The notes: generated from the sequence alone by a model not told the origin. Shown: positions 204-41,522, counted from the first letter of the stretch. The stretch: DNA of 64,000 bases from Promethearchaeota archaeon (GCA_016839555.1 JAEOUA010000001.1:80554-144553); one strand, 5' to 3'. A program made the numbers and translations.

Positions 204-752
204 TTAGTCTATGGTTTCTCCATAATTTCTTAAAATTTGTCTCACAAGATTTTCAAACGCCTTCTCCACATTTTCCCCGTATTTTGCCGATGTTTCTACA
301 AAATCACAAGCCTTTATCTCTTCTGCTAATTTTTGCCCTTCTTCAGTTTTAACCATACGCTGTTCTTCTAAGTCTTTTTTATTCCCAATTAAGATATAAG
401 CCCCCTCCTTTTCCACATATTTCTTAAAGTCATTTAGCCATTTTTCTTTAATCGCCGCAAAAGTTTTTTCTCTGCTGATATCATACACTAAGAGGGCACC
501 AACACAACCCTGAAAGTACATGGAGCGAATTACATTGTACTTTTCTTGTCCCGCCAAGTCCCACATAATTAATCTGACCCTTGTGTCATTAATATTTACA
601 TCTTTTCGAATTATATTCGCTCCAAGAGTTGGTTTATAGTCCTCTTGGAAACTACTTTCTACATATTGACTAATCAAGCTTGTCTTGCCTACGGCTGCCT
701 CGCCGAGGATTGTGAGTTTAAAGACAAACTCTCTATTATCATTTGCTGACAT
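204..752 (-). CDS. Rab/Ras-like small GTPase
   Basis: All G-motifs are present in order: G1 GEAAVGKT, G3 WDLAGQE, G4 GNKKD, G5 ETSAK. About 180 aa with no C-terminal Cys prenylation motif. Last gene of a tightly spaced three-gene minus-strand unit. Confidence 0.85.
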   Translation of the reverse strand: MSANDNREFVFKLTILGEAAVGKTSLISQYVESSFQEDYKPTLGANIIRKDVNINDTRVRLIMWDLAGQEKYNVIRSMYFQGCVGALLVYDISREKTFAAIKEKWLNDFKKYVEKEGAYILIGNKKDLEEQRMVKTEEGQKLAEEIKACDFVETSAKYGENVEKAFENLVRQILRNYGETID

Positions 753-7225: not shown

Positions 7226-7750
7226 ATGTTTCAGACGTTACTTTTCAAAATCGTGATAGTGGGTGATGGCGGCGTTGGCAAGTCTACAATGCTACAAAGA
7301 TTAGTAACAAATGAATTTATTTCTTGCCAAGTCACTATTGGAACTGATTTTAGAATGTTTAATGTTGCAATAAATAACTGCCTTATAAAATTGCAAATTT
7401 GGGACCTAGCTGGAGAGGAACGGTTCCATTTTCTCTTAGGGAACTATTGTCAAGGTGCAACTGGAGTGCTGCTCTGCTATGATATCACGCGCTATACCAC
7501 TTTTAAAAATATCGAAAAATGGTATAATATCACTAAAAATAATGCTGATAATCCTATATTTATCTTAGTTGGGGAAAAAAAAGATTTAGAATATAGAAGA
7601 GTAGTTTCCAAAGAAATGGGCTATTATTTTAAAAAACGATTTCAATTGGATTATTTTTTTGAAACCTCTTCAAAATCAGGCATAAATAATAAAGTTATAT
7701 TTGAAACTCTTGCAGCTGCTATCGCAGAAAAGAGAAATCTTGATTTATAA
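7226..7750 (+). CDS. Divergent Rab/Ras-like small GTPase
   Basis: G1 GDGGVGKST is canonical. G3 is WDLAGEE (Glu where the catalytic Gln sits), G4 is GEKKD (Glu in place of Asn of NKxD), and G5 is ETSSK. Confidence 0.8.
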   Translation: MFQTLLFKIVIVGDGGVGKSTMLQRLVTNEFISCQVTIGTDFRMFNVAINNCLIKLQIWDLAGEERFHFLLGNYCQGATGVLLCYDITRYTTFKNIEKWYNITKNNADNPIFILVGEKKDLEYRRVVSKEMGYYFKKRFQLDYFFETSSKSGINNKVIFETLAAAIAEKRNLDL

Positions 7751-28787: not shown

Positions 28788-31700
28788 ATGAATATTAATA
28801 AGGACTTACAATTAACTTATATTTCTTCTATATATTGGAATAATGAAATAAGTGACTTTTCTTTAATTTCTAGTTCTAAAAAAATACCCTCAGATGCGAG
28901 CTTTTTTTTAATTTGGATTCCTTTTCAAGATTCCTTGGAGTATTTAGAAGAAAATATGAAAAAGAACTTTAAGGAGATACCCATAGATAAATTAATCTCT
29001 TGTTCTATTAATTTAGTCCTTCCAACTCTAAACGATTCTGGATTTGAAAATGTATTTCATATAAGGAAAGTTTATGGAAAAATATTACCTATCTTACCAG
29101 CTAGTAAATTTCTCAATAAACTAGAAATTTTTGAGAATGAAGACACTCCTGAATCTTCCAGATTTCTGAGTGATTCAATTATAACTTGGGCTTTATTAAC
29201 TAAACTTATCTTCGAATTAATAAGCAGAGGGAGCTTTGTACCTGATTTAGATAAATCATCAGAAAGATTTTATAACGGCCATTGGCGCATAATACTGGAA
29301 GATCAATATGATAATGAACGATTTCAAAAAATTTTACATAATTGTCCTTGGACAGCTCATAATCTTCCAGAAACACTAAAACTAAAAAATAATAATTCAT
29401 CACCACAACAAAAGTATATTGTTGAGGAATTATGGCATCCTTCATATATATTTTCTGAATATATGGATACTATTGGGGATTTATTAATAAGATCAATATT
29501 AATTAAAAATAATTTTCAAACCTTTAATGAATTCTATAATACTGAAATACTTAAGGAAAAGAATAGAGAAGTAAATTTGAACTGGGATTATAAATTTTTG
29601 AAATCTTTATTAAAAAAAGACACTCGCTTTCATATACAACAATTTCATGAAACAATTGTACCAAAATTAATTAAGAATTGGTTAAATATTTCAAGAATAT
29701 CCACCCTTCGATATGGAATTAAGATTGTTTTGCAATTAGAGTTACCCAACGACAACCAAGAAGAATGGCCGCTAAATCTTTATATTGCCTTTCAAAACTC
29801 ACAAAATCTTATTTTATTAAAAGACTTTTTAAAAGGAGAGAGCAACTTAGATTTAGAAGTTATGGACTTCTTTGAAACTAAGGAAGAATTAATGGAACTA
29901 ATCTTAAGAAGCTTAGGAAAAATTGTTAAGATATATCCTCCCATAAAAAAGGCTCTGGATGGTTCCTATCCGAAAGAATTGAAGCTATCATCTTCAGAAG
30001 TAATGAATTTTCTTTCTTATCCTAAAGATATATTAATCCAGAGTGGATTTAATGTGATTTTACCGGAAGTATTTAAAAAAGGAGGAAAACAAAGATTATC
30101 GGCAATAATGATTATTTATTCAGAAGAGGAATTAGAAGAGAAGAAAATATCAACATCTTCTATTGCTCCTATGTTTCAATTAAACGATATGTTGAATTTT
30201 CGATGGGAGGGAGAACTTGGTGATAAACAATTAGATAAAGAACAATTTGAAAAACTTATTGATGCCAATCAACCTCTCATTAATATAAAAGGAGAATGGG
30301 TCTTAGTGGATCAACAAGATCTTGAGAATATACACAAAATTTTTAATTCATCAGCAGAAGTTGGAAACTATACTAAACCTCAAGGAACTATTAAATATCT
30401 AGATGCTCTAAAATTAGGTTTATCTAAAGAAGTAGAAGTAGGTACCACCGGGATTAATTATAAAGTAATTATAAAGGGACATTTTGAAGAAATTATAAAT
30501 AAGATAAAAACAATAGAAAAATTTGAAGAAATTTCCATACCAGCTTCATTTAATGGAATATTAAGAGAATATCAAAAAGTAGGTTTAACATGGATGGCAA
30601 ATCTATGTGAATTAAATTTTGGAATGTGCCTTGCAGATGATATGGGTCTCGGAAAGACCATTCAAGTTATTGCCTTATTGCTGCATTTTAAACAAAAATA
30701 CCCCCAAAATTTAAATAGTGTTTTAATAATATGCCCTACTTCAGTTTTATATAATTGGAAAAAAGAAATAAACCGATTTGGACCAGATCTCGATGTGATT
30801 TTTCATCATGGACCAGAAAGAGTAAAAAAACTTTCAAAAATCTCTAAATATGTCAAATCTCATCGAATAATCCTGACCACTTTTGGTACAATAAGAAATG
30901 ATGTTGATTTATTAAAGACAATACAATTTACAGGAATTATCGTGGATGAATCGCAGAATATGAAAAACTATGAAGCTCAACAAACCCAAGCCATCTATAA
31001 ATTACAGAGTAACTATCGAATATGTTTGAGTGGAACACCAATAGAAAATCGATTAATGGAATTATGGACATTATTCGAGTTTTTAAACCCAGGGCTCTTA
31101 GGAGATCAAAAAAAATTCCGAGATAATTTTGTAATTCCCATAGAAAGATTCCATAATCAAGACGCGACAGAAAAACTTAAAAAAATCATATCACCCTTTA
31201 TTCTAAGAAGAGAAAAAAGCGATAAATCCATAATAAAGGATTTGCCGGAAAAAAATGAAATGAAAATTTATATTGAGTTAAGTGAAATGCAATATGAACT
31301 TTATAAAAAATTAGTTCAGGAGACTTTAAAACAATTCGAAAGTACGCATGCTGATAAAAAAAATAAAAGTATGTATATATTAACCCTGTTGACAAAACTG
31401 AAACAAATTTGCAATCATCCCTTCCAATTTTTACATAAATCAATTTCTATCGAAGAATTATCAGAAAATTTTGAAAACTTCGTCTCAATGTCTCCAAAAT
31501 TAGAAAGACTATTAGAAATGATCGATGAAGTTATCAGTAAAGGGGAAAAAGCGATCATTTTTACTCAATTTACTCAAATGGGAAATATCCTTAAAAAAGT
31601 TTTGAGTTATAAATATAATTTTCCCATACTTTATTTTCATGGAAGTGTTACTGCCGATAAGAGAAAAGAAATAGTGGATGAATTTCAATCTGAAAAACCA

Positions 31701-32018
31701 AATACTCCGCCCCTCTTAATTTTGTCTCTTCGAGCAGGAGGTTTAGGTCTTAATTTAACAGCAGCAACTACGGTATTTCATTACGATAGATGGTGGAATC
31801 CTGCTGTAGAAAAGCAAGCAACAGATAGAGCATACCGAATCGGTCAAACAGAAAGCGTAAATGTGTATAAATTCATTATGGCAGATACTATTGAGGAGAA
31901 AATAGATAAACTTATTGAAGAGAAAAAAGAGTTAGCTGATATGGTTATAGCTACTGGAGAGTCATGGATTTCAGAATTAAATGACGAAAAAATTAAGGAA
32001 TTAATTTCATTAGAATAA
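28788..32018 (+). CDS. SNF2-family helicase/translocase with a long N-terminal domain
   Basis: Motif I DDMGLGKT, motif II DESQNMKN, LSGTPIENRLMELW, and motif VI QATDRAYRIGQ. The ~560-aa N-terminal extension resembles the bacterial SNF2 N-terminal domain. Confidence 0.9.
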   Translation: MNINKDLQLTYISSIYWNNEISDFSLISSSKKIPSDASFFLIWIPFQDSLEYLEENMKKNFKEIPIDKLISCSINLVLPTLNDSGFENVFHIRKVYGKILPILPASKFLNKLEIFENEDTPESSRFLSDSIITWALLTKLIFELISRGSFVPDLDKSSERFYNGHWRIILEDQYDNERFQKILHNCPWTAHNLPETLKLKNNNSSPQQKYIVEELWHPSYIFSEYMDTIGDLLIRSILIKNNFQTFNEFYNTEILKEKNREVNLNWDYKFLKSLLKKDTRFHIQQFHETIVPKLIKNWLNISRISTLRYGIKIVLQLELPNDNQEEWPLNLYIAFQNSQNLILLKDFLKGESNLDLEVMDFFETKEELMELILRSLGKIVKIYPPIKKALDGSYPKELKLSSSEVMNFLSYPKDILIQSGFNVILPEVFKKGGKQRLSAIMIIYSEEELEEKKISTSSIAPMFQLNDMLNFRWEGELGDKQLDKEQFEKLIDANQPLINIKGEWVLVDQQDLENIHKIFNSSAEVGNYTKPQGTIKYLDALKLGLSKEVEVGTTGINYKVIIKGHFEEIINKIKTIEKFEEISIPASFNGILREYQKVGLTWMANLCELNFGMCLADDMGLGKTIQVIALLLHFKQKYPQNLNSVLIICPTSVLYNWKKEINRFGPDLDVIFHHGPERVKKLSKISKYVKSHRIILTTFGTIRNDVDLLKTIQFTGIIVDESQNMKNYEAQQTQAIYKLQSNYRICLSGTPIENRLMELWTLFEFLNPGLLGDQKKFRDNFVIPIERFHNQDATEKLKKIISPFILRREKSDKSIIKDLPEKNEMKIYIELSEMQYELYKKLVQETLKQFESTHADKKNKSMYILTLLTKLKQICNHPFQFLHKSISIEELSENFENFVSMSPKLERLLEMIDEVISKGEKAIIFTQFTQMGNILKKVLSYKYNFPILYFHGSVTADKRKEIVDEFQSEKPNTPPLLILSLRAGGLGLNLTAATTVFHYDRWWNPAVEKQATDRAYRIGQTESVNVYKFIMADTIEEKIDKLIEEKKELADMVIATGESWISELNDEKIKELISLE

Positions 32019-32047
32019 AAATTTCAAATTGTTAATAATTAGAAAAA

Positions 32048-32968
32048 ATGAACGAAAAAAGAGATTATAGAAAGCTATCAGATAGAAATTATTATCCTAA
32101 GATGGATAAACGAAAAAAACATGAAGAAGTAAAGCAAATTAAAGAAGATTTAATTAATTATGCGAAAACTTCTTGGGGAAAAAAGTGGATCCATTCCATC
32201 TTAAAAATAGGTCGTCCTTATAGGATGCGTCGAGCGATGAAATATGCAGAAGATGAAGAGAGAATTAGTAATTTAGTAATAAAAAAAGGAGAAATTTTTT
32301 CATTAGTTCAAGGGACAGCTCCCACCCCATATCGAGTAAGAATTTTCTTTAAACCAATTCCTGAGAAGGCATGGCAAGAAATTGAAAAGGAGATCTCCAA
32401 AAATCTACTTAATTTAATCCATTTGTTAGAAGGTAATTTATCCGACGAAATTATTGAAATTTTTGAGAAAAAAAATTATTCTCTATTTTATGATATTTCA
32501 GAAGGATTTAATGCGAGATGTTCTTGTCCAGATCAAGCTATACCTTGTAAACATATTGCTGCTACTATACTTTATGTTTCTAGAGTTGTGGACTATAATC
32601 CATTAATTCTCTTAAAACTTAAAGGAAAAAAGAAAAAAGAATTATTGTCAGAACTAAATATCGGCAGAAATATTGCGATAGAGCCAGCTGATAAGGCATC
32701 TAATAAGCAAATGATTAGCAAGAAAACCTCATATTACTCGTTTAATGTACCTAAAATATCAACAAAAGAGATTAAGATTCAAAAATCCTTAAGGGACGAT
32801 ATAAAAGATATTAATTTTCAATTTAGCAAACCAGGTAAGGTTATAGAAACATTAGAAAATTTAGGCTTGCCACCGAATTTAGAAAATCCCAGAGCTTTTG
32901 CTATTGTTCTTGATAAAATTTATAGAACTATAACAACTGAAGCATATAAAATATCACTCTCAAAATAG
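32048..32968 (+). CDS. SWIM zinc-finger protein
   Basis: CSCPDQAIPCKHIAA fits the SWIM pattern CxC-xn-CxH. 29 nt downstream of the SNF2 gene. Confidence 0.75.
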   Translation: MNEKRDYRKLSDRNYYPKMDKRKKHEEVKQIKEDLINYAKTSWGKKWIHSILKIGRPYRMRRAMKYAEDEERISNLVIKKGEIFSLVQGTAPTPYRVRIFFKPIPEKAWQEIEKEISKNLLNLIHLLEGNLSDEIIEIFEKKNYSLFYDISEGFNARCSCPDQAIPCKHIAATILYVSRVVDYNPLILLKLKGKKKKELLSELNIGRNIAIEPADKASNKQMISKKTSYYSFNVPKISTKEIKIQKSLRDDIKDINFQFSKPGKVIETLENLGLPPNLENPRAFAIVLDKIYRTITTEAYKISLSK

Positions 32969-33294: not shown

Positions 33295-34251
33295 ATGGAA
33301 AACTTGCTGAATAATTTATTAGAAAACTACATGGAGATCATAGATGACATTTTAGCAGTAGCGATTGTTGATAAAAATGGATTAATAATCACTTCTAAGA
33401 AACGAGAGAGCTCAGAAAAAGGTTCAGACCAAGTGATAGGAGTGATCTCTGCGGTACTTGAAGGTTATATAGACCGCCTTAAAAAAGAATTTGATACTAA
33501 AAGCACCTTTTTTAATATTACAGAGACCGGTGACAAGAAGTTTACATTCTGTTCAAAAGGTCAAAATACCATTTTAGCAACTATTTCAGAATTGGAAACC
33601 TCTAATACAGAATTAAGGGTTCTCTCAGAATACGTAGCAGGTCAGATCGAATTATTAATTGAAGGGAAAGAAAACTTCACTATAAAAATACCTCATATTA
33701 TCCAAGTACTCTCAAAAACACGTAGCGGAAAGTTTCCTGAGGGAGAATATTCGGTAAAATTAATAATTACCGGTGATTCTAAAGTTGGAAAGACGAGTTT
33801 AGTAAGAAGGTTTGTAGAAAATAAGTTTAATGAGGAATATATAACAACCATGGGAGTTGATATTACAAAACATGTAGTAAACATTGATGATCGAGCAGAA
33901 ATCAATTTTATCATTTGGGACATTGGTGGACAAAATTTTACACCATATAGAACCAAATTTTATAACGGAGCTAATTGTGCGATGATTATTATTGATAGAA
34001 CCCGTCAAAAGACTTTAGAAACTATTGAAGGATGGTATAATGATATAAAAGAATCTGTAAAAAAAGAAATTCCCATTGTTATAGTTGCCAATAAAAGCGA
34101 TCTTGTTAATGAAATTGAATTAGAAGAAAAAGAGATAAAGCAACAAGCGGATAAATTTGGATTTAATTTTATCATCAGCTCAGCTAAGACGGGCGAAAAC
34201 GTATCTACAGCATTTTTATATATGGGCTATAAATTTTTGGAAAATTTATAA
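33295..34251 (+). CDS. Roadblock/LC7 domain fused to a Rab-like small GTPase
   Basis: The N-terminal ~125 aa are Roadblock-like: ILAVAIVDKNGLIITS...VIGVISAVLEG...FCSKGQNTILATIS. The C-terminal G domain has G1 GDSKVGKT, G3 WDIGGQ, G4 NKSD and G5 SSAKTG. Confidence 0.8.
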   Translation: MENLLNNLLENYMEIIDDILAVAIVDKNGLIITSKKRESSEKGSDQVIGVISAVLEGYIDRLKKEFDTKSTFFNITETGDKKFTFCSKGQNTILATISELETSNTELRVLSEYVAGQIELLIEGKENFTIKIPHIIQVLSKTRSGKFPEGEYSVKLIITGDSKVGKTSLVRRFVENKFNEEYITTMGVDITKHVVNIDDRAEINFIIWDIGGQNFTPYRTKFYNGANCAMIIIDRTRQKTLETIEGWYNDIKESVKKEIPIVIVANKSDLVNEIELEEKEIKQQADKFGFNFIISSAKTGENVSTAFLYMGYKFLENL

Positions 34252-34423
34252 TCATATACTTTTTGAATTATGTATTAAAACATGTTTATTGTATTTTTTT
34301 AAAAAAATTATTTTAAAAGCGAATAATTTATTATTATTAAAAATAAGGAGGTTTGAGTTAACAATAGTACTTAAAGTACAATTCAATGATGTATTAGCGA
34401 CTTGAGATGCACAAGGATACTTA

Positions 34424-35287
34424 ATGGGGTTCTCTATTAAAGAATTGACTTATAAAAATAAATATCTGTTGTTTCTTACAGAACAAGAATATGCAGGACC
34501 TTGGTTTAGTTTTAAACTATATGGAGAAAACGTGGGAACAATTCCTGTGATCCTTAAAAATATTGAACCGACTCCAATTTATAAATTGGTAAATAGCAAG
34601 AAAGGCACATTTGTAGATCGGATAACTCTTGATTTTGATATCAAAGAATATTTAAAAAAACTTATCAAGGATGGAAAAATTGATTCGATAGAATTTACTA
34701 GAGAAGAGCTCTATATCAGATTATTTATTGATGTATTTAATAAACCAAAAGTGCCTTACATAAACACGTTTTTTACCTTTAAAAATATATCGGATTATGA
34801 TTTAATAGATTTCAATATTTATTTTGTATTCGATTTTGATATAAATGGATTAGAAGGATTTGACAATGACTTATCAGGATATGATAAAGATAATGATATT
34901 TTATACCAATATGACAACACAAATCTACATGGTGGATTTTCTCCAATCTCTAAATCTACAAATTTCGAAACATGTCTTACAAAAGATTTTGAAATTAATG
35001 AAAATCATTTAAATTTATCAAATACTCTATATGAAGAGCCTGGAGAAATTTTATCAGCCTTACAGATTGAATTCAAGACATTACAACCAGAACAGACTTT
35101 TCAAACAGCATTAACTGTATCAGGAGGATTAAACAAACAAGAATTAATTGAAAATATTCGAGATGGAAAGTCAAATGCTATCAAATTTCTAAACCAAGTA
35201 AATAGAAATGTCAAATCAAAACAGAGAAATCTCCAAGAACTGGCATTTGTGTCATTAAATCTTCAAGAAGCAAAAGACTGCGATTAA
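34424..35287 (+). CDS. Hypothetical beta-rich protein
   Basis: 287-aa ORF with coding-like composition. No family recognised. Confidence 0.5.
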   Translation: MGFSIKELTYKNKYLLFLTEQEYAGPWFSFKLYGENVGTIPVILKNIEPTPIYKLVNSKKGTFVDRITLDFDIKEYLKKLIKDGKIDSIEFTREELYIRLFIDVFNKPKVPYINTFFTFKNISDYDLIDFNIYFVFDFDINGLEGFDNDLSGYDKDNDILYQYDNTNLHGGFSPISKSTNFETCLTKDFEINENHLNLSNTLYEEPGEILSALQIEFKTLQPEQTFQTALTVSGGLNKQELIENIRDGKSNAIKFLNQVNRNVKSKQRNLQELAFVSLNLQEAKDCD

Positions 35288-35492
35288 TAAAAATGATGAT
35301 TCAAATAAAAAAAGCCAGAGATGGGCATTTATTTGATGAATACCTTGCAAGAGGAAGTATTAATCAAATCGAATTTATCTACTTTTAATTATTTTAAGCA
35401 TATTTGTAAAAATTATCAAAAGTTTTATATTCTATTGAAGTTCTTAATTTTATATAAAAAACAATATAGAAGAAAAATATTATTTTGCTTTT

Positions 35493-36419
35493 ATGGAAAA
35501 TAGCGATTTAAAGGTCTTTAAACTTCTTTACTCTGGAGAAATAAAAGAACAAACGCTGGAAAGCGGAAACTTAGTAGATATTTTTTCTAATTTTAGCGTC
35601 TTAGCTTTTTATATCGGTAAAAATAAACGTTTATATACTTGGATAGGCGAAGATGCATCTAGAACCTTAAAAAATTATATTGTAAATATGCGACAAGCTT
35701 TTTCAGAAGAATATCCTTATATGAGAGTATTGAGATATATAACAGAGGATTCTATTGAATCTATGAGTGAGAATGATGAATTTTTCTCAGATATTGGGAT
35801 TTTAAAAGAAAATATCGTTAAACATTTAGAATTGGAAAAAAGTAAGTATGAAGAAGAACTTCAAACCAAAATAAATAATCTCAAAGAGGAAGCAGATTCG
35901 TTTTTTGAAAATGAAAACTTCGAAAAGGCTATTGAAATTTCAAAAACGATAATTGAGCTTGCAAAAGAAACACAAGATAAAAAATTGATAGAGGATCAGG
36001 AAGCATTTATATCTGAAGCAGAAGCAAGAATGAAAGCAAAATTTATATTAACAGAAATTAGAGAAGAAAGTAAAAAAATTAAAAAAAGATATTTAGAAGC
36101 AAAAAAGAATAATATACAGATTAAAGCATTATATAATTATGTTCAAACATTTAAGAAAAATTATGAGCAATATCTTACTTTGCCTGCCTTAGAAACTATA
36201 CAGAGATTAATTTTAAATGTGGAAGAACTATGGTCTGAATATTTTTCTAAAATAAAGAAACAAGACCAAATAGAAGAAGATATGGAAATAATCAATTCTC
36301 TTAGGGAAAAAGGTAAGGATAAATTGAATAAGGGATCTTTATCGGAAGCTCATAAATATTTTGAAAAAATAACGGTTAAAATTAATAAACTTTTAAAAAA
36401 GACTAGTGAGAATATATGA
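35493..36419 (+). CDS. Gelsolin-like N-terminal domain + coiled-coil protein, putative
   Basis: The first ~105 aa are KVFKLLYSG...LVDIFSNFSVLAFYIGKNKRLYTWIGEDASRTLKNYI...RVLRYITEDSES..EFFSDIG. This follows the gelsolin-repeat pattern (F/L-x-V ... LNS-D-x-F-I-L ... I-Y-x-W-x-G-x-x-S-S ... E-x-x-E-F). The rest is a helical coiled coil. ATGA overlap with the next gene. Confidence 0.5.
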   Translation: MENSDLKVFKLLYSGEIKEQTLESGNLVDIFSNFSVLAFYIGKNKRLYTWIGEDASRTLKNYIVNMRQAFSEEYPYMRVLRYITEDSIESMSENDEFFSDIGILKENIVKHLELEKSKYEEELQTKINNLKEEADSFFENENFEKAIEISKTIIELAKETQDKKLIEDQEAFISEAEARMKAKFILTEIREESKKIKKRYLEAKKNNIQIKALYNYVQTFKKNYEQYLTLPALETIQRLILNVEELWSEYFSKIKKQDQIEEDMEIINSLREKGKDKLNKGSLSEAHKYFEKITVKINKLLKKTSENI

Positions 36420-38896
36420 GTGAAAAATTGGATGATATTTTTAAGGAATTTGAAGATGTCTTTTTAGGTAGAGAAAATGAGATAAAAAAATTCCTCTTAA
36501 AATATAAAAAAGATGCCTTTATAAAGCAAGATGTTATCAATGTAGAAAGAATTGATGCCACGTATAGGCTTGAGACCTCAGGATATAGAAAGAATTTATC
36601 TATGTGGCAAAATTTTTATAAAAATCTTATTGTTAGCGTATGCATGGAAATTAAGCGCAAACAAAGACGTTTTGATTACAAATTCTTTTTTACTGAAGAA
36701 AAACTTGATTCAGAACTATTAGAAAAAGTAGAAGAGATTATTAAAGAAGTAAATAAATTAAAAGCTAGGGCAAAATTTTCAGAAGCGTTAGAGAAAATAG
36801 ATTTAATAGAAGAAATGGTAGCTGATACACAAGATAAATATTTTAATGCACAATTGAGGAATCTACGCCAAGAAATTAAAATTGCTGAAGAAGATTATAA
36901 TAAAAAATTACAAAGAATAAAAAACTTAGAGTCTGCATTAGAAGAAGAGAGGCAAAAGCAAAATTATGATAAGGCATTAGATATTTGTGAAGAAATTGTA
37001 ATCATTGCAGAATCAATCAATCAAAAACAAGTACAAAAAAAATATGAAGATCTAATTCAAGAATTAACTAGAGAAAAAATTAAAGGACAAATTAATAAAT
37101 TAAATGAAAAAGCTGAGGAAGCCAGAAAATCCAAAAAGTTCAAAATAGCAATAGATTTATATAATCAAATTATAAAGCTAGCAGAGTCTGCTGGATTAAC
37201 TGAAGAAAAGGAGAAATATACTAAAAAAATAGAAGAGACTAATCGTGAACTAATTAAAAAAGAAATTAATGAATTAGAACAAAAAGTTGATAAAAATAGA
37301 AAAGCAGGAAGACGTTTTGTTGCGATATCTAATTGTAATGAAATCATTGAGCTTGCAGAGTCAATCAATTTAACTGAGATTAAAGAAAAAACTCTTCAAA
37401 AAATCGATGAAATTAAAAAAGAAATGGATCAAGTAAGAAAAAGAGAAGAAATTGAAAATAAAATCGCTATGTTGGAGAAGGAATTTGCAGAGAGTAAAAA
37501 AAATGAAAATTATGAAGAATCTTTAGAAATTACTTTAGAAATTATTGAATTAGCTAGTTCCATTGATGATAAAGAAACTTGGAAAAAATATACCCAAATA
37601 AAAGATGAAATAATAACAAAATTAGAAGAAAAAGAGAAGTCAAAACAACAAGAAATTATTGAAGATAAAATAAGAGACTTAGAAGCACAAATAGAAGAAA
37701 ATCGAAAATCAAATAATCTTGAAAATATTATTATACTTTCAAATACAATAATAGAACTCAGTGATTCGATTGAAAGGGATGATATTAAAAAACAATATCA
37801 AGAATTGATAGAAAAAATCAAAAAAGAACTCGAGCAAAAGAGAAAGAAAGAACAAACTGAAGATATTAAACATAAAAAAATATCTGAGCTCCAAAAGATT
37901 ATTAATGAAAGAGTCCAAAAAAAGGAAAAGGAGCAAGAAGAATTATTTAATAATGCTAAAAAATTCGAGGATATGATTCAGCTAGAGGAAAATGTCATGC
38001 TTATCATTGAGGAATATTCCGTTGATGAGATTATAGGAGATATTTCTGATGATATAAATCAGATAATAGAAAAATTAAATATTTTACTTAATGAGCATAG
38101 AGTCGAAATAAAGGAAAATATTAAAAGTGAATCGGTTTTAATCAGCGCATCAGGAGAAATTATAGAGTTAGATGATGAAATTAAAGTGGAAAAAGTGGAA
38201 GAGGAAGAAGAAACAATATTTAATGTTACATCGGGGTTTGAAAATCCATTTGATGATATGATTGAAGAAGCAATTATTACGGATTTAATTCCATATAATT
38301 TCGCAATCAATAATGTAGAATTTAATGGAGAGGAAGTTAAAGAATTAAATAACACACTTTTATTAAAAGATGGGCTCGAAGTGAAATGGCAATTAAAAAA
38401 TATTAATAAAAATGAACGCGTTGATATTAAATATGATTTAAGAAAGAGAATATCACGAACAATTCTATTTTTACTCGAAGATCAAGTTAAAATTTTTAAA
38501 ACTCATTCAAAAATTAAAGAGTCTATACCAAAAGTAGAGGGTCTTTACGATGCTAAAATGCCTTTTAAGAATTCCTATGATAAAGCTTTAAATGGATTAG
38601 TAATAGAAGATATTATTCCACTTTATTATGTTCATACTATACGAGAACCCACTGTATATTTACCTCAAGAGAACGAAACAAATCAAGGAAGTATGGTAAA
38701 ATGGAATATCGGAAAATTAGAACCTACTAAAATTAAGTACCATTATAAATTATTAGAGTTGTATAAATTAGAAGAATTAAAAGCTTTAATATATAAATTA
38801 GATAAAGAAGGGTTTGCAGCTCTTAAAAAAGATGAAATAATTGAATCACTAAAAAAATATAATGAAATCACCAAGATATTGAAAGACTTTATCTAA
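36416..38896 (+). CDS. Large repeat protein: helical-hairpin/coiled-coil repeats + C-terminal beta-sandwich-like (DUF11/CARDB-like) repeats
   Basis: There are 5-6 units of 58-69 aa. Each contains x-Y/F-x-x-A-L/I...I-I-E-L-A-E-S-I, as IVIIAESINQ, IIKLAESAGL, IIELAESINL, IIELASSIDD and IIELSDSIER. The C-terminus has two segments of the form ITDLIPYNF...VKWQL and VIEDIIPLYY...VKWNIGKL. Confidence 0.7.
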   Translation: MSEKLDDIFKEFEDVFLGRENEIKKFLLKYKKDAFIKQDVINVERIDATYRLETSGYRKNLSMWQNFYKNLIVSVCMEIKRKQRRFDYKFFFTEEKLDSELLEKVEEIIKEVNKLKARAKFSEALEKIDLIEEMVADTQDKYFNAQLRNLRQEIKIAEEDYNKKLQRIKNLESALEEERQKQNYDKALDICEEIVIIAESINQKQVQKKYEDLIQELTREKIKGQINKLNEKAEEARKSKKFKIAIDLYNQIIKLAESAGLTEEKEKYTKKIEETNRELIKKEINELEQKVDKNRKAGRRFVAISNCNEIIELAESINLTEIKEKTLQKIDEIKKEMDQVRKREEIENKIAMLEKEFAESKKNENYEESLEITLEIIELASSIDDKETWKKYTQIKDEIITKLEEKEKSKQQEIIEDKIRDLEAQIEENRKSNNLENIIILSNTIIELSDSIERDDIKKQYQELIEKIKKELEQKRKKEQTEDIKHKKISELQKIINERVQKKEKEQEELFNNAKKFEDMIQLEENVMLIIEEYSVDEIIGDISDDINQIIEKLNILLNEHRVEIKENIKSESVLISASGEIIELDDEIKVEKVEEEEETIFNVTSGFENPFDDMIEEAIITDLIPYNFAINNVEFNGEEVKELNNTLLLKDGLEVKWQLKNINKNERVDIKYDLRKRISRTILFLLEDQVKIFKTHSKIKESIPKVEGLYDAKMPFKNSYDKALNGLVIEDIIPLYYVHTIREPTVYLPQENETNQGSMVKWNIGKLEPTKIKYHYKLLELYKLEELKALIYKLDKEGFAALKKDEIIESLKKYNEITKILKDFI

Positions 38897-38932: not shown

Positions 38933-39409
38933 TTATCCTCTTAAAGTAGCTATGATTGTTTTTTCATCCAATAAAAAATCTATCGCATCATTAGGATTGG
39001 TAAAAATGACATCCGCATTCATTAAACTTTTCCCACTTGCTCCCTCACTTCCTATTATTAGAATTCCCAAAGCTGCATTTTTAAGCATTAACATGTCATT
39101 ATTGCCATTACCAATTGCTATTGTATTTTCTTTTCCCAATTTTAATAATTCTTTATTTTTTGCTTCTGCATCTGTTTGATTTCCTGTATTTATTCTAATA
39201 TATTTAGAATCTAATTTCTTAGCCAATTCATTTAAATTACCACGCGTATCTGATGATATCAGAAAAATATTATAGTGCCGTTTTAAAGCTCTAAATTTTT
39301 CTATTAATTTATTTGAGATTTTTCCATTAAATTGTAGGGTGCCATTGATATCAAAAATGATGTTGCTTATTTCAAGTAAACCAAAATGAGGAATATTAAC
39401 TTTCTTCAT
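38933..39409 (-). CDS. HAD-superfamily hydrolase (COG4087 soluble P-type ATPase-like / KdsC-like)
   Basis: Motif I-like IIFDINGTL and motif IV GNGNNDMLMLK. 158 aa. Confidence 0.7.
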   Translation of the reverse strand: MKKVNIPHFGLLEISNIIFDINGTLQFNGKISNKLIEKFRALKRHYNIFLISSDTRGNLNELAKKLDSKYIRINTGNQTDAEAKNKELLKLGKENTIAIGNGNNDMLMLKNAALGILIIGSEGASGKSLMNADVIFTNPNDAIDFLLDEKTIIATLRG

Positions 39410-39447
39410 ATATTTTCAAGTTTTCTATAATTAATTAAATTTTAATA

Positions 39448-40989
39448 TTGGTTATTTTTAATAACATTGTAATGTCTAAAAAACAAAAAATAAATCAAGT
39501 AATATTATTAATTATTGATGATGTAAAATCTTCACAATTCTTTGAATTATTAGATGGGGGAAAGCTTCCCAATTTTAAAGAATTAATAGAAAATGGATCT
39601 TTCTGCAAAGATTGCATAACTTCCTTTCCGAGTGTAACATTTCCTTGCTATCCTAATATCATTACTGGAGCATATTCGGGATATTATCTAAAAGAAGGAA
39701 GCGGAATTCCATCTTATCATTGGGTTGCCCGAACAGACCCTCCCTCTATAAAGAAAAAACTACCATTTATACGAAACTACTCAATCGGTACTCATATATT
39801 TAAAATAGGTTCCGATTTGGGGGATAATGTGAAGACTATTTTTGAACAGGCAGGCGAAGGAAACTTTCTCAGTTCTTTAAATATCGTATATCGCGGCTCT
39901 TATATTGTACCTCCCACAACATTTAATACGGAGAATGTTTTCAAAAATATCGAAAAGGCGTTTATCCAGCCCGAAAAATTTTTCGAAATAAGGGAAGTTC
40001 CCAAGATAACAGTAGGATATATTCCTAAAACGGACGAGTTATTGCATGATTTTGGATTTGATCATCCAGACTATATAAATGAGATATTGAAATGTGATAA
40101 ATATTTTGGTTCTCTCATTAATGTTTTAAAAAAAGGGGGATATTATGATTCAACCGCATTATGTATAATCTCTGATCATGGAAACTATAAAGTTAAAAAC
40201 CTCTATGATCTTGAACCTTTTTTCGAAAGAAAAGGACTTATTCCTTATAATCCTAAAAAAAAAAGGGGCGATTTTGATGCTAATTTTGGTTCTATAGGTC
40301 ATTTTAATTTTCCAGGTGATACATGGCATCATCATCCAACAATAAACCAAATGAAAAATTTTTCTCCAAGTGGGAAAAGTAATAAATTGAATTTATTTGA
40401 AACGCTTTGGGAGATTCCGGGAGTTAAATTAATGTATTATAGGGATGATGAAAATACGCCAGAACGAGGTAAAATTTATATCAAAGAAAAAAGTGAAAAA
40501 GATGGAAAATTAAGAGAAGGATTAATTGAGTATAGAGGATTCGGAAAGGAATTAGAGACTAAATATACTTTTTATGATGAACATGAAATATATGGTTATG
40601 AAAAAAGTGAAAAATCTGCAACATTACTTGATAATAATTTTCATAATATAGAGGATTGGCTTTCTGGGACGTATAATATTGATTTTCCAATGGTTAGTGA
40701 TCAAATTTCACGCTATTTTAAAAATCCTCGTTGTTGCGATATTTTAATATCCACTAAAGGAGAATATGGGTTTAATTATGAGCATGGGGAAACTAAAAAC
40801 GAACATGTCTATTCACATGATATTGGATTAAAGAAATCTATGACTGTACCGATGATAATAGGAGGGTCACAAAATATTCCTCAAACTGAATTGACCTACT
40901 GTAAAACAACTGATATTGTTCCTACTCTTTTAAATCTGTTAGGAATTACACCACATAAGAGCGTGATTGGAAAAAATCTCTTTAAATAA
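39448..40989 (+). CDS. Alkaline-phosphatase superfamily phosphodiesterase/nucleotide pyrophosphatase-like protein
   Basis: LLIIDDVKSSQF (metal Asp), FPSVTFPCYPNIITG (nucleophile Thr region) and ISDHG. The real start may be the internal MSKKQK. Confidence 0.75.
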   Translation: MVIFNNIVMSKKQKINQVILLIIDDVKSSQFFELLDGGKLPNFKELIENGSFCKDCITSFPSVTFPCYPNIITGAYSGYYLKEGSGIPSYHWVARTDPPSIKKKLPFIRNYSIGTHIFKIGSDLGDNVKTIFEQAGEGNFLSSLNIVYRGSYIVPPTTFNTENVFKNIEKAFIQPEKFFEIREVPKITVGYIPKTDELLHDFGFDHPDYINEILKCDKYFGSLINVLKKGGYYDSTALCIISDHGNYKVKNLYDLEPFFERKGLIPYNPKKKRGDFDANFGSIGHFNFPGDTWHHHPTINQMKNFSPSGKSNKLNLFETLWEIPGVKLMYYRDDENTPERGKIYIKEKSEKDGKLREGLIEYRGFGKELETKYTFYDEHEIYGYEKSEKSATLLDNNFHNIEDWLSGTYNIDFPMVSDQISRYFKNPRCCDILISTKGEYGFNYEHGETKNEHVYSHDIGLKKSMTVPMIIGGSQNIPQTELTYCKTTDIVPTLLNLLGITPHKSVIGKNLFK

Positions 40990-41063
40990 ATGGATAAAGC
41001 TTTATTCTAGATTTTTTAATAAAAACTATTTTAAATAACATTCATTTTACAAATTGAGAAAAA

Positions 41064-41522
41064 ATGGAAAAAGATCGTAGAAAAACTATATTTTCTGAAG
41101 AAGAAAAGAAATTAATCCAATCATTAAAACAAGAACTTAGGTTGATGGGAATACCCCGAAATGAATGGGCGAGTTATATTCAACAAGAGCTTACTTATCA
41201 TAGAAATAAGAAAAATCGAAAATCACCTTTGAAAAAGGAATTGGGAGTTTTAGGCTTCTTTAAAAAAATCTGGGATAAGATAATTAGCTTCTTTTTTAAA
41301 TCAGCAATAAAGAGATTTACAAAAGATGGAGATTTTATTGAACAATTTCAAAAATATCTTGAAGAACCCTACCAATTTTCTGAAGAAGAAAAAAAAATTG
41401 TGGAGATGTTAAATCCTCAAGTATATTTTAACAATGTTAGCGATTTAGGGAAAGGAAGAGGAACATTTAAGAAAAAAGGAGAAGAAACAATAGTAGACTT
41501 TGATGATGAGATGACTGATTGA
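41064..41522 (+). CDS. Hypothetical charged protein
   Basis: 152-aa ORF. No family recognised. Confidence 0.4.
   Translation: MEKDRRKTIFSEEEKKLIQSLKQELRLMGIPRNEWASYIQQELTYHRNKKNRKSPLKKELGVLGFFKKIWDKIISFFFKSAIKRFTKDGDFIEQFQKYLEEPYQFSEEEKKIVEMLNPQVYFNNVSDLGKGRGTFKKKGEETIVDFDDEMTD

Follow-up and report, generated by a model that had tools for sequence, protein, structure and literature searches.

We analysed a 64,000-nucleotide (nt) stretch of DNA from a Promethearchaeota archaeon (GCA_016839555.1 JAEOUA010000001.1:80554-144553; here called the window, with a G+C content of about 28%), and in particular four consecutive plus-strand open reading frames (ORFs) between positions 33295 and 38896, designated genes 1 to 4. 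We propose that this block consists of two unrelated gene pairs, genes 1-2 and genes 3-4, which are conserved independently of each other and abut only in one narrow Lokiarchaeal clade; gene 2 would encode a candidate selenoprotein, and genes 3 and 4 a gelsolin-type head and its scaffold. We put the probability of this joint reading at roughly two in three. All four ORFs were present at the positions given in a first-pass annotation of the window, and the gaps of 172 nt between genes 1 and 2 and 205 nt between genes 2 and 3 were confirmed. Neither gap is intergenic over its full length: the coding sequence of gene 2 appears to reach into the first by 60 nt, and an element resembling a selenocysteine insertion sequence (SECIS) takes up 78 nt of the second. 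The observations of the first-pass annotation were largely right, whereas its unifying interpretation, a single module of all four genes, was not supported. The most interesting content of the block is the candidate selenoprotein, and next to it the modular gelsolin-head/scaffold family. The close homologues with a named source were labelled Promethearchaeota, i.e., Lokiarchaeal Asgard archaea.

The conserved frame of gene 2 extends upstream of its annotated start through an in-frame UGA

Two samples were used for the comparisons. A scan with gene 2 over one genome per species (GTDB) gave 94 genomes, from which 80 loci were kept, 77 of them informative for the upstream gene. An independent metagenome sample supplied 62 contigs informative for genes 1-2 and 22 for genes 3-4. 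The features of the 5' region of gene 2 in the window are as follows.

34345..34352, plus strand: Shine-Dalgarno-like box AAGGAGGT, with conservation of 90% or more over 75 loci; 171/171 distinct sequences have such a box
34364..35287, plus strand: gene 2 in the revised frame, 307 codons, with a putative AUA start at 34364 and an in-frame UGA; the annotated body of 287 amino acids (aa) begins at the ATG at 34424
34403..34405, plus strand: in-frame TGA, candidate selenocysteine codon, 7 codons before the annotated ATG; invariant in 75/75 canonical loci

When the spacers between genes 1 and 2 were aligned, about 75 nt in front of the annotated gene 2 ATG were found to be conserved. Conservation of the coding type begins 60 nt upstream of this ATG, behind the GGAGG box, and the conserved frame reads (K)-I-V-L-K-V-x-F/W-N/H-D/E-V/I-L-A-T-[TGA]-N/D-x-x-G-Y-L/V-M-G-F-S. 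Upstream of the TGA, the entropies at the three codon positions were 0.72/0.32/1.39; for the codons that separate the TGA from the ATG they were 0.92/0.40/1.28. The third position thus has about four times the entropy of the second on either side of the TGA, as in the gene 2 body (0.54/0.34/1.24), while the upstream non-coding sequence had no periodicity (1.47/1.44/1.31). The TGA lies 18 nt from the ATG and in the same frame in 75 of the 80 loci, and it was present in 69 of 72 metagenome sequences, the remaining three being variants with a hairpin insertion that are described below. An RNA structure as the cause of the conservation around the UGA was considered and rejected, with no consensus structure found in the 75 canonical loci. 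Because the coding-type conservation begins 60 nt upstream, the annotated start of gene 2 is, on this comparative evidence, wrong, and the 287-aa ORF lacks its 5' part. The public annotations of gene 2 that we encountered all start at the internal AUG.

In-frame stop codons stand immediately 5' of the first conserved codon of the extension in some loci. The first in-frame start-like codon, located mostly 9-11 nt past the GGAGG-type box, was ATA in 144, ATT in 17, TTG in 6, ATC in 2, ATG in 1 and GTG in 1 of the 171 distinct sequences. A putative near-cognate start behind a perfect GGAGG box is therefore a family-wide feature (ATA or ATT in about 94% of the 171; 34364-34366 in the window). At the homologous start, for example, locus L100 reads GGAGGT-N9-ATG, and loci L165 and L095 have TTG. 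Translation of gene 2 would accordingly start from the near-cognate AUA about 10 nt behind the GGAGG box.

A lokiSECIS-like element follows the stop codon of gene 2

An element of about 80 nt was found directly 3' of the gene 2 stop codon in nearly every locus. In the window, its parts are the following.

35285..35362, plus strand: lokiSECIS-like element, starting at the gene 2 stop codon, defined by alignment, pair counts and comparison with PMC4989117
35285-35289 with 35358-35362, plus strand: helix I, pairing
35296-35299, plus strand: AUGA core
35301-35308 with 35329-35336, plus strand: helix II, pairing
Apical loop, plus strand: opens with an A-run and has a ministem; GA at 35338-35339
35343-35354, plus strand: extra hairpin capped by GCAA

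The layout of the element is AAAUCC..(A/U)AAUGA-UCAAAUAA-AAAAAA-ministem-AAAG-UUAUUUGA-UGAA-small hairpin-GGAUUU. Among 79 sequences of the 3' untranslated region (UTR), the proposed partners could pair in 94.4% of the cells, against 26-52% when the partners were slid. Changes on both sides were seen in 12 of the 19 pairs of the element, and none of 500 shuffles reached the observed values. A strict lokiSECIS pattern had a single match in the 64-kb window (35296-35339) and two matches in total over 20 shuffles of the window; in 1.35 Mb of collected loci it gave 75 matches, all of them directly after the gene 2 stop codon. Neither the window nor the collected loci contained a known selenoprotein gene that could serve as a positive control for the pattern.

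The features of lokiSECIS, including those of the type II element of SelD/SPS with its apical ministem, have been described (Mariotti 2016, PMC4989117; Huang 2024, PMC11227280). All of the published hallmarks were found in the gene 2 element: AUGA before a 9-position stem, a loop that starts A-rich and is closed by a G, GA 3' of the stem, and a location adjoining the stop codon. Like the SelD/SPS gene with its type II element, gene 2 has an in-frame UGA, and the two elements have in common the position after the stop, the AUGA, the 9-position stem, the A-run loop, the closing G, the GA and the ministem. The gene 2 element differs from lokiSECIS in having an extra conserved hairpin between the core and helix I. 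The SECIS-like structure was established by comparison only, not by folding of a single sequence.

Recoding of the UGA and its alternatives

The frame runs through an invariant UGA, and directly 3' of the stop codon there is a stem-loop of the eukaryote-like lokiSECIS type. Gene 2 is for these reasons a candidate for a new selenoprotein of Asgard archaea, and the UGA is quite likely to be recoded as selenocysteine (Sec). The SECIS-like element would then direct Sec insertion at the in-frame UGA, giving a protein of about 307 aa with Sec near its N-terminus, while initiation at the internal AUG would give a form without Sec. A Cys at residue 286, two residues from the C-terminus, is nearly invariant and may be a redox partner of the N-terminal Sec. 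The carriers of gene 2 include the LAZR contigs from Loki's Castle, in which both the TGA and the element are present, and the metagenome-assembled genome bin41, both of which are documented Sec users in the literature. The window, the part of the source genome that the analysis covered, holds no tRNA gene, that of tRNA-Sec included.

Several observations weigh against recoding. A scan of 34200-35520 with Rfam at E values up to 10 returned no SECIS family and only chance matches to sRNA and snoRNA families. This null result is expected, since the existing SECIS models did not match lokiSECIS in the earlier study either (Mariotti 2016, PMC4989117). The minimum-energy fold of the window 3' UTR alone did not take the SECIS shape (z = -1.66). 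The evidence for Sec use comes from the carriers LAZR and bin41 and not from the genome of the window itself. No homologue with Cys aligned to the UGA was detected: a TGY pattern had 0 matches in the metagenome collection, and, insertion variants aside, none of the 72 sequences there has a sense codon at this position. In addition, most members of the family need a non-AUG start. Finally, an insertion of 28-32 nt, which is not a multiple of three, lies immediately 3' of the UGA in five GTDB loci (L036, L039, L042, L063 and L086) and in three metagenome sequences (L091, L098 and L124). Its sequence, AUCUUCA...UGAAGCAAGA, shows compensatory changes and folds into a 4-bp CUUG:CAAG helix, one AAU bulge and a hairpin. 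The frame is broken in these loci, yet the upstream peptide, the NxxGYV codons and the SECIS-like element are all kept.

Two ways of removing or passing this insertion were considered and rejected. As an archaeal intron of the bulge-helix-bulge type, it does not fit the canonical arrangement of two 3-nt bulges on opposite strands around a 4-bp helix. As for hopping of the gene-60 type, the matching take-off and landing codons that it requires were found only in L036.

These observations bear on a different explanation, in which a leader ORF of 14 codons ends at the UGA, gene 2 is re-initiated at the annotated AUG, and the 3' stem-loop is a regulatory element of the kink-turn/L7Ae type or a terminator. 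The eight sequences with the insertion favour it, because with such a length the frames on each side of the UGA need not be continuous, and the lack of a Cys homologue, the non-AUG start and the Rfam result point in the same direction. However, conservation of the protein type is seen in the six codons that separate the UGA from the AUG (G-Y-[LVI], with free third positions and the entropies given above), and their frame and 18-nt spacing are identical in almost all loci. The 3' element, moreover, has every hallmark of lokiSECIS at the usual lokiSECIS position and is maintained even in the loci with the insertion. We therefore regard the leader-ORF explanation as improbable, and retain Sec insertion at the UGA as the preferred reading.

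The published Asgard selenoproteome, which was found by homology, comprises seven families, SelD, FrhA, HdrA, FrhD, Prx-like, AhpF-N-like and DsbA-like, and gene 2 is not among them. The earlier SECIS screen used the type I pattern together with Cys homologues and reported no further candidates (Mariotti 2016, PMC4989117). A literature search found no paper describing the gene 2 family. In comparison with the known lokiSECIS genes, gene 2 has neither Cys homologues nor a thioredoxin-like fold; it also differs in placing the putative Sec about 14 residues from a non-AUG start and in the hairpin insertion after the UGA in some lineages.

Protein family and fold of gene 2

The first-pass annotation had described gene 2 as a beta-rich orphan of 287 aa. 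It is beta-rich, as judged from the model described below, but it is not an orphan, and the length reflects an ORF truncated at its 5' end. The family comprises 402 database clusters and occurs in the 94 species-level genomes of the scan. The clusters listed are all 285-292 aa long, have no Pfam domain, and are called hypothetical wherever they are named. Among the four genes, conservation is highest in gene 2, at 79-83% identity where genes 3 and 4 show 45-58%. No match to Pfam, NCBIfam or PDB sequences was obtained.

The AlphaFold2 (AF2) model of the 287-aa body, with a mean predicted local distance difference test score (pLDDT) of 85.6 and a predicted TM-score (pTM) of 0.84, is a beta-supersandwich with C-terminal helices. 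Foldseek matched it to the N-domains of the glycoside hydrolase (GH) families GH94 (cellobiose phosphorylase), GH116 and GH15, to galactose mutarotase and to the P1 domain of YidC, with E values from 1.6e-8, a probability of 1.00 and TMq of about 0.4-0.56. The gene 2 model thus resembles the galactose-mutarotase-like supersandwich domains in fold, at an identity of just 10-16%. In comparison with the N-domains of GH94, GH116 and GH15, gene 2 is a stand-alone domain with added C-terminal helices and no catalytic residues were matched; the model covers the annotated body, downstream of the putative Sec.

Residues 136-154 form an invariant acidic stretch, FDFDINGLxGFDNDLxGYD, with calcium-loop-like motifs of the DxDxNG type. 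Gene 2 was also found at 65-74% identity in records labelled Odin-, Thor-, Hermod-, Hod- or Heimdallarchaeota, and because of this level of identity the labels may be unreliable. A record filed as 'Candidatus Nanopelagicaceae bacterium' (L050, DATKTW010000123.1) carries a Lokiarchaeal gene 1-gene 2 pair, with gene 2 70% identical, and is probably mis-binned.

Gene order separates genes 1-2 from genes 3-4

Gene 2 has a full-length gene 1 as its immediate 5' neighbour in 74 of the 77 informative species-level loci (96%) and in 56 of the 62 metagenome contigs (90%), and the gap between them is strikingly constant (median about 167 nt; about 160-180 nt). Measured to the revised start of gene 2, the distance is about 110 nt. 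Genes 3-4 follow genes 1-2 in only two of the 80 loci, both from close relatives, which have in common with the window the downstream genes for a haloacid dehalogenase (HAD) family hydrolase, a phosphodiesterase and GH38 as well, and in one of the 22 metagenome contigs. In L001, genes 3-4 are located between genes for a pyridine-nucleotide oxidoreductase and a pyruvate:ferredoxin oxidoreductase, with no genes 1-2 nearby. Elsewhere, genes 1-2 are flanked by two DNA methyltransferases, a protein with EF-Tu domain 2, the phosphodiesterase and GH38. In the window, a separate ribosome-binding box precedes gene 2, and the pair of genes 3-4 likewise has an upstream region to itself.

The proposal of the first-pass annotation, that a GTPase switch is coupled to an actin-binding scaffold, would make all four genes one cytoskeletal or membrane module in which gene 1 switches the gelsolin scaffold. 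In the window, and likewise in the four related loci L002, L004, L005 and L006, the genes stand side by side on one strand, and every part has a eukaryotic analogue. On the other hand, the order is limited to close relatives, in which the flanking HAD, phosphodiesterase and GH38 genes are syntenic too; genes 3-4 are not beside genes 1-2 in 78 of the 80 species-level loci and 21 of the 22 contigs; they occur alone in L001; and in L002 an opposite-strand gene lies between genes 1 and 2. These counts largely refute the single module, which we consider very improbable. The conservation check that the annotation had suggested thus failed for the four-gene order beyond close relatives and succeeded for the pairs 1-2 and 3-4 separately. 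From the synteny counts, the block is two units, and a coupling of GTPase and actin has no comparative support.

A possible functional link between genes 1 and 2 is a separate question. Its basis is their persistent adjacency, which is at most moderate evidence. A methyltransferase is found 5' of gene 1 in 64 of the 77 loci, and the neighbouring housekeeping genes are fairly syntenic as well; since the neighbours share this property, adjacency by itself argues weakly for the link. Genes 1 and 2 could be neighbours by inherited order only, and gene 2 might belong with the glycan-related genes downstream, namely those for the phosphodiesterase, HAD and GH38. In keeping with this, the upstream methyltransferase is nearly as syntenic as gene 2 itself; about 45 of the 80 loci have the phosphodiesterase within 1.3-5 kb 3' of gene 2, and 35 have GH38; gene 2 is preceded by a Shine-Dalgarno box of its own and by about 110 nt of AT-rich DNA; its supersandwich resembles carbohydrate enzymes (the N-domains of GH94, GH116 and GH15, and mutarotase, in Foldseek); and the GTPases of strain MK-D1 are generally not in operons with regulators (PMC10933270). 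The gene 1-gene 2 adjacency is nevertheless the most persistent one of the region in both samples, with constant spacing, and the genes between gene 2 and the phosphodiesterase vary. We rate mere inherited order somewhat below even odds.

A wider proposal combines these points: gene 2 would found an unrecognised Asgard-specific selenoprotein family (supersandwich fold, obligate Sec, non-AUG start) and act together with the Roadblock-Rab-like GTPase as a redox- or selenium-responsive effector or regulator, and the hairpin of about 30 nt in some lineages would be spliced out or hopped over. Taken as a whole, this proposal is unlikely.

The genes recurring downstream of gene 2 (38933-41522 in the window, and loci L008-L087) encode a HAD hydrolase on the minus strand, a type I phosphodiesterase/sulfatase-family protein and a 152-aa protein; a GH38 alpha-mannosidase also recurs in L008-L087. 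With such neighbours, the supersandwich protein may work in a glycan or phosphoester context. A 366-aa protein is encoded about 2.3 kb downstream of gene 2 in 27 loci (e.g., L059 12297-13397, minus strand); it matches EF-Tu domains 2 and 4, and no standard P-loop was seen on reading its sequence. Upstream of gene 1, the window (28788-32968) and L014, L015, L062, L075, L076 and L083 have a conserved pair of genes for an SNF2 helicase (with DUF3670) and a SWIM zinc-finger protein; most other genomes have in their place a 636-aa Eco57I-type N6 methyltransferase.

Gene 1 is a Roadblock-Rab-like GTPase

33295..34251, plus strand: gene 1, 318 aa; about aa 1-140 are a Roadblock/LC7 domain, and aa 150-318 are a complete Rab-like G domain in the same chain

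The fusion of an N-terminal Roadblock/LC7 domain to a Rab-like G domain, as first annotated, was borne out. The Pfam Ras model matched residues 155-310 at 2e-38, and Roc matched as well. The closest solved relatives are a Thorarchaeota Rab (7ezb, 2.5e-30) and Rab1. The G motifs read in the sequence are complete (G1 GDSKVGKT, a T in switch I, G3 WDIGGQ, G4 NKSD and G5 SAK), which makes this a full G domain of the Ras superfamily. The C-terminus, ...MGYKFLENL, does not have the Cys prenylation motif of eukaryotic Rab proper. The Robl_LC7 match of the window protein alone was weak (E 0.016); however, the N-termini of 35/35 orthologues matched Robl_LC7 (best 2.7e-8), 32 matched the LAMTOR3/MP1 model, and a profile of this region found 7f8m, a solved Robl_LC7 protein in the PDB, at E 0.0044. 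The Roadblock assignment, judged from these profile matches, is solid at the level of the family.

Fusions of a Roadblock domain and a GTPase (RB-GTPases) in this domain order have already been described for Lokiarchaeon MK-D1 (Tran 2024, PMC10933270). Asgard Roadblock-GTPase fusions, Rag GTPases and MglA/MglB all combine a Roadblock platform with a G domain of the Ras superfamily, as does gene 1, which has both in one chain. In contrast to Rag, in which the Roadblock domain is C-terminal, it is N-terminal in gene 1, and the G domain is closer by sequence to Rab (the Thorarchaeal Rab and Rab1). Gene 1 also differs from the known RB-GTPases in that its conserved partner is the candidate selenoprotein instead of a second Roadblock protein or a longin protein. 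The window holds two more small-GTPase paralogues of the gene 1 G domain, at 225-731 (minus strand) and 7247-7588 (plus strand), with 36% and 33% identity.

Gene 3 has a gelsolin-homology head

35493..36419, plus strand: gene 3, 308 aa, with a gelsolin-homology domain (aa 1-105, 35493-35807) followed by a helical region with a repeat of the gene 4 type; 1DGelX-like

Just eight close homologues of gene 3 were found by a word-indexed search. An exhaustive hidden Markov model (HMM) search with the first 109 residues yielded 79 cluster representatives, 81-1417 aa in length, all of them with the domain at the N-terminus. A profile built from 56 of its sequences matched villin (4e-9), adseverin (2e-6) and Loki 2DGel (7.8e-4), and compared with Thor ProGel (7c2f_B) it gave 9.4e-8 over the whole domain (profile 6-100, chain 4-93). 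The Pfam Gelsolin model never matched gene 3 or its close homologues. The AF2 model, built from a 7-sequence alignment, had pLDDT values of 80-95 for the helices at residues 105-304 and of only 29-65 for residues 1-100. With this low-confidence head, Foldseek listed ProGel (probability 0.99, E 0.13) and gelsolin G2 among matches that otherwise resembled tetratricopeptide repeats (TPRs). Because the modelled head is too uncertain, the claim is based on the sequence profiles. These profiles identify gene 3 as having a true gelsolin-homology domain in a known architecture, termed 1DGelX, which consists of one gelsolin domain and a helical or coiled-coil 'domain X' (Akil 2020, PMC7444086). The first-pass description of a gelsolin-like N-terminus followed by helices or a coiled coil agrees with both the profile and the modelled helices.

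Gene 3 shares with Thor 1DGelX/ProGel (PDB 7c2f) the single N-terminal domain of the gelsolin/cofilin type, the helical domain X and the restriction to Asgard archaea; the likeness is one of architecture, not of established orthology to the Thor protein that was tested. Its domain X recognisably consists of the repeat, present once or twice, from which the neighbouring 826-aa protein of gene 4 is built. It also differs from Thor 1DGelX in being translationally coupled to gene 4, and some of its relatives fuse the head to long repeat arrays and the gene 4 tail.

Thor 1DGelX binds actin with a dissociation constant (Kd) of 7.7 uM and severs filaments without calcium (Akil 2020, PMC7444086). By analogy, the gene 3 head probably binds actin, as its Thor homologues do. 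Alternatively, the head may be a protein-interaction module that does not act on actin, in the manner of Sec23, and genes 3-4 a non-cytoskeletal scaffold family. Actin binding is not known for the gelsolin-like domain of Sec23 (Akil 2020, PMC7444086), the identity of the gene 3 head to ProGel is low, and within the same repeat family the head is interchangeable with an unrelated one (g4N), while the tails vary (beta-propeller, membrane span or none). The closest solved relatives, however, bind actin (villin, ProGel in its actin complex, adseverin and Loki 2DGel), as does Thor 1DGelX with its identical architecture. A head that does not act on actin is therefore rather doubtful, and actin binding is preferred.

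Genes 3 and 4 form one unit

36416..38896, plus strand: gene 4, 826 aa; aa 1-112 form a family-specific head, aa 113-490 hold about six three-helix repeats, and aa 492-815 are a C-terminal module

Gene 4 has 21 homologues, which align as a modular family. The 110-aa head is strongly conserved in all of them, with invariant D47, R51, G56, W64, N66, Y68, N70, C76, R85 and DYKF. It is followed by a variable number of repeats of 65-70 aa with the motif ..NYxxAL..IIELAESI..KY.., and then by one of several interchangeable tails: that of gene 4, a beta-propeller (P0022-27), a membrane-spanning end (P0029), or none. The repeats and the motif shared with gene 3, as well as two C-terminal segments, described there as beta-sandwich-like, had been recognised at first pass; the conserved head had been missed. 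Matches of the gene 3 and gene 4 repeats to TPR were weak (sub-threshold in Pfam; E of at least 0.017 to LGN and other TPR domains in Foldseek), and the period of 65-70 aa fits three-helix units better. The C-terminal module consists of two homologous segments (hhalign probability 95.6%, E 1.2e-8) plus terminal helices. A profile of this tail found no significant relative in the PDB or Pfam, and a comparison with gene 2 showed no kinship.

Genes 3 and 4 overlap by ATGA in the window and are adjacent in six independent loci (the window, L002/L003, L004, L005, L006 and L001), usually with an overlap of 4-8 nt. The helical part of gene 3 matches the gene 4 repeats (blastp 5e-4, with HMM matches across the gelsolin family). 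In other lineages, 16-17 gelsolin-headed cluster representatives of 643-1417 aa carry the gene 4 tail in the same chain (E 1e-71 to 1e-135), and the gene 4 head was found in none of them. By their domain composition, these single-chain proteins are a Rosetta-stone link between the gelsolin head and the gene 4 tail. The claim that genes 3-4 are one unit was thus upheld by adjacency in six loci, shared repeats, and the joining of head and tail in one polypeptide elsewhere. The ATGA overlap would couple translation of gene 3 to that of a long scaffold made of the same three-helix repeats. Since the shared repeats may join the two proteins in a complex, an actin-binding head would be tethered to the gene 4 tail, a tethering that other lineages would achieve with one polypeptide.

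No gelsolin gene was found upstream of the beta-propeller paralogues of gene 4, so that the pairing appears to be specific to the orthologous pair of genes 3 and 4. These paralogues have the gene 4 head and repeats and a beta-propeller end with Pfam matches to BBS7, BBS2, PTHB1, Itfg2 and FG-GAP (P0022-P0027; L088 3199-5964; L089 5001-8066). L001 also has a propeller gene standing by itself (501-2147), which encodes 548 aa and is about 6 kb away from genes 3-4. In L007 (2801-10783), three genes of the gene 4 family stand in tandem (732, 524 and 1260 aa), two of them with the gene 4 head and tail, and there is no gelsolin gene nearby.

Implications

The attractive idea of a GTPase-actin module is corrected here as unsupported, and a testable module takes its place, namely a 1DGelX-type head joined to a long repeat scaffold. 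It belongs to a modular head-repeat-tail family that includes single-chain versions and paralogues with beta-propeller tails. As for gene 2, if the UGA is indeed translated as Sec, the archaea closest to eukaryotes would possess a widespread new selenoprotein family (more than 400 database clusters and at least 171 distinct gene sequences), annotated as hypothetical in the public records that we encountered and missed alike by screens based on homology and on type I SECIS. Present estimates of the Asgard selenoproteome, and of how diverse eukaryote-like SECIS elements are, would then be too low, and gene 2 would be an example of Sec beyond the usual thioredoxin-like redox folds.

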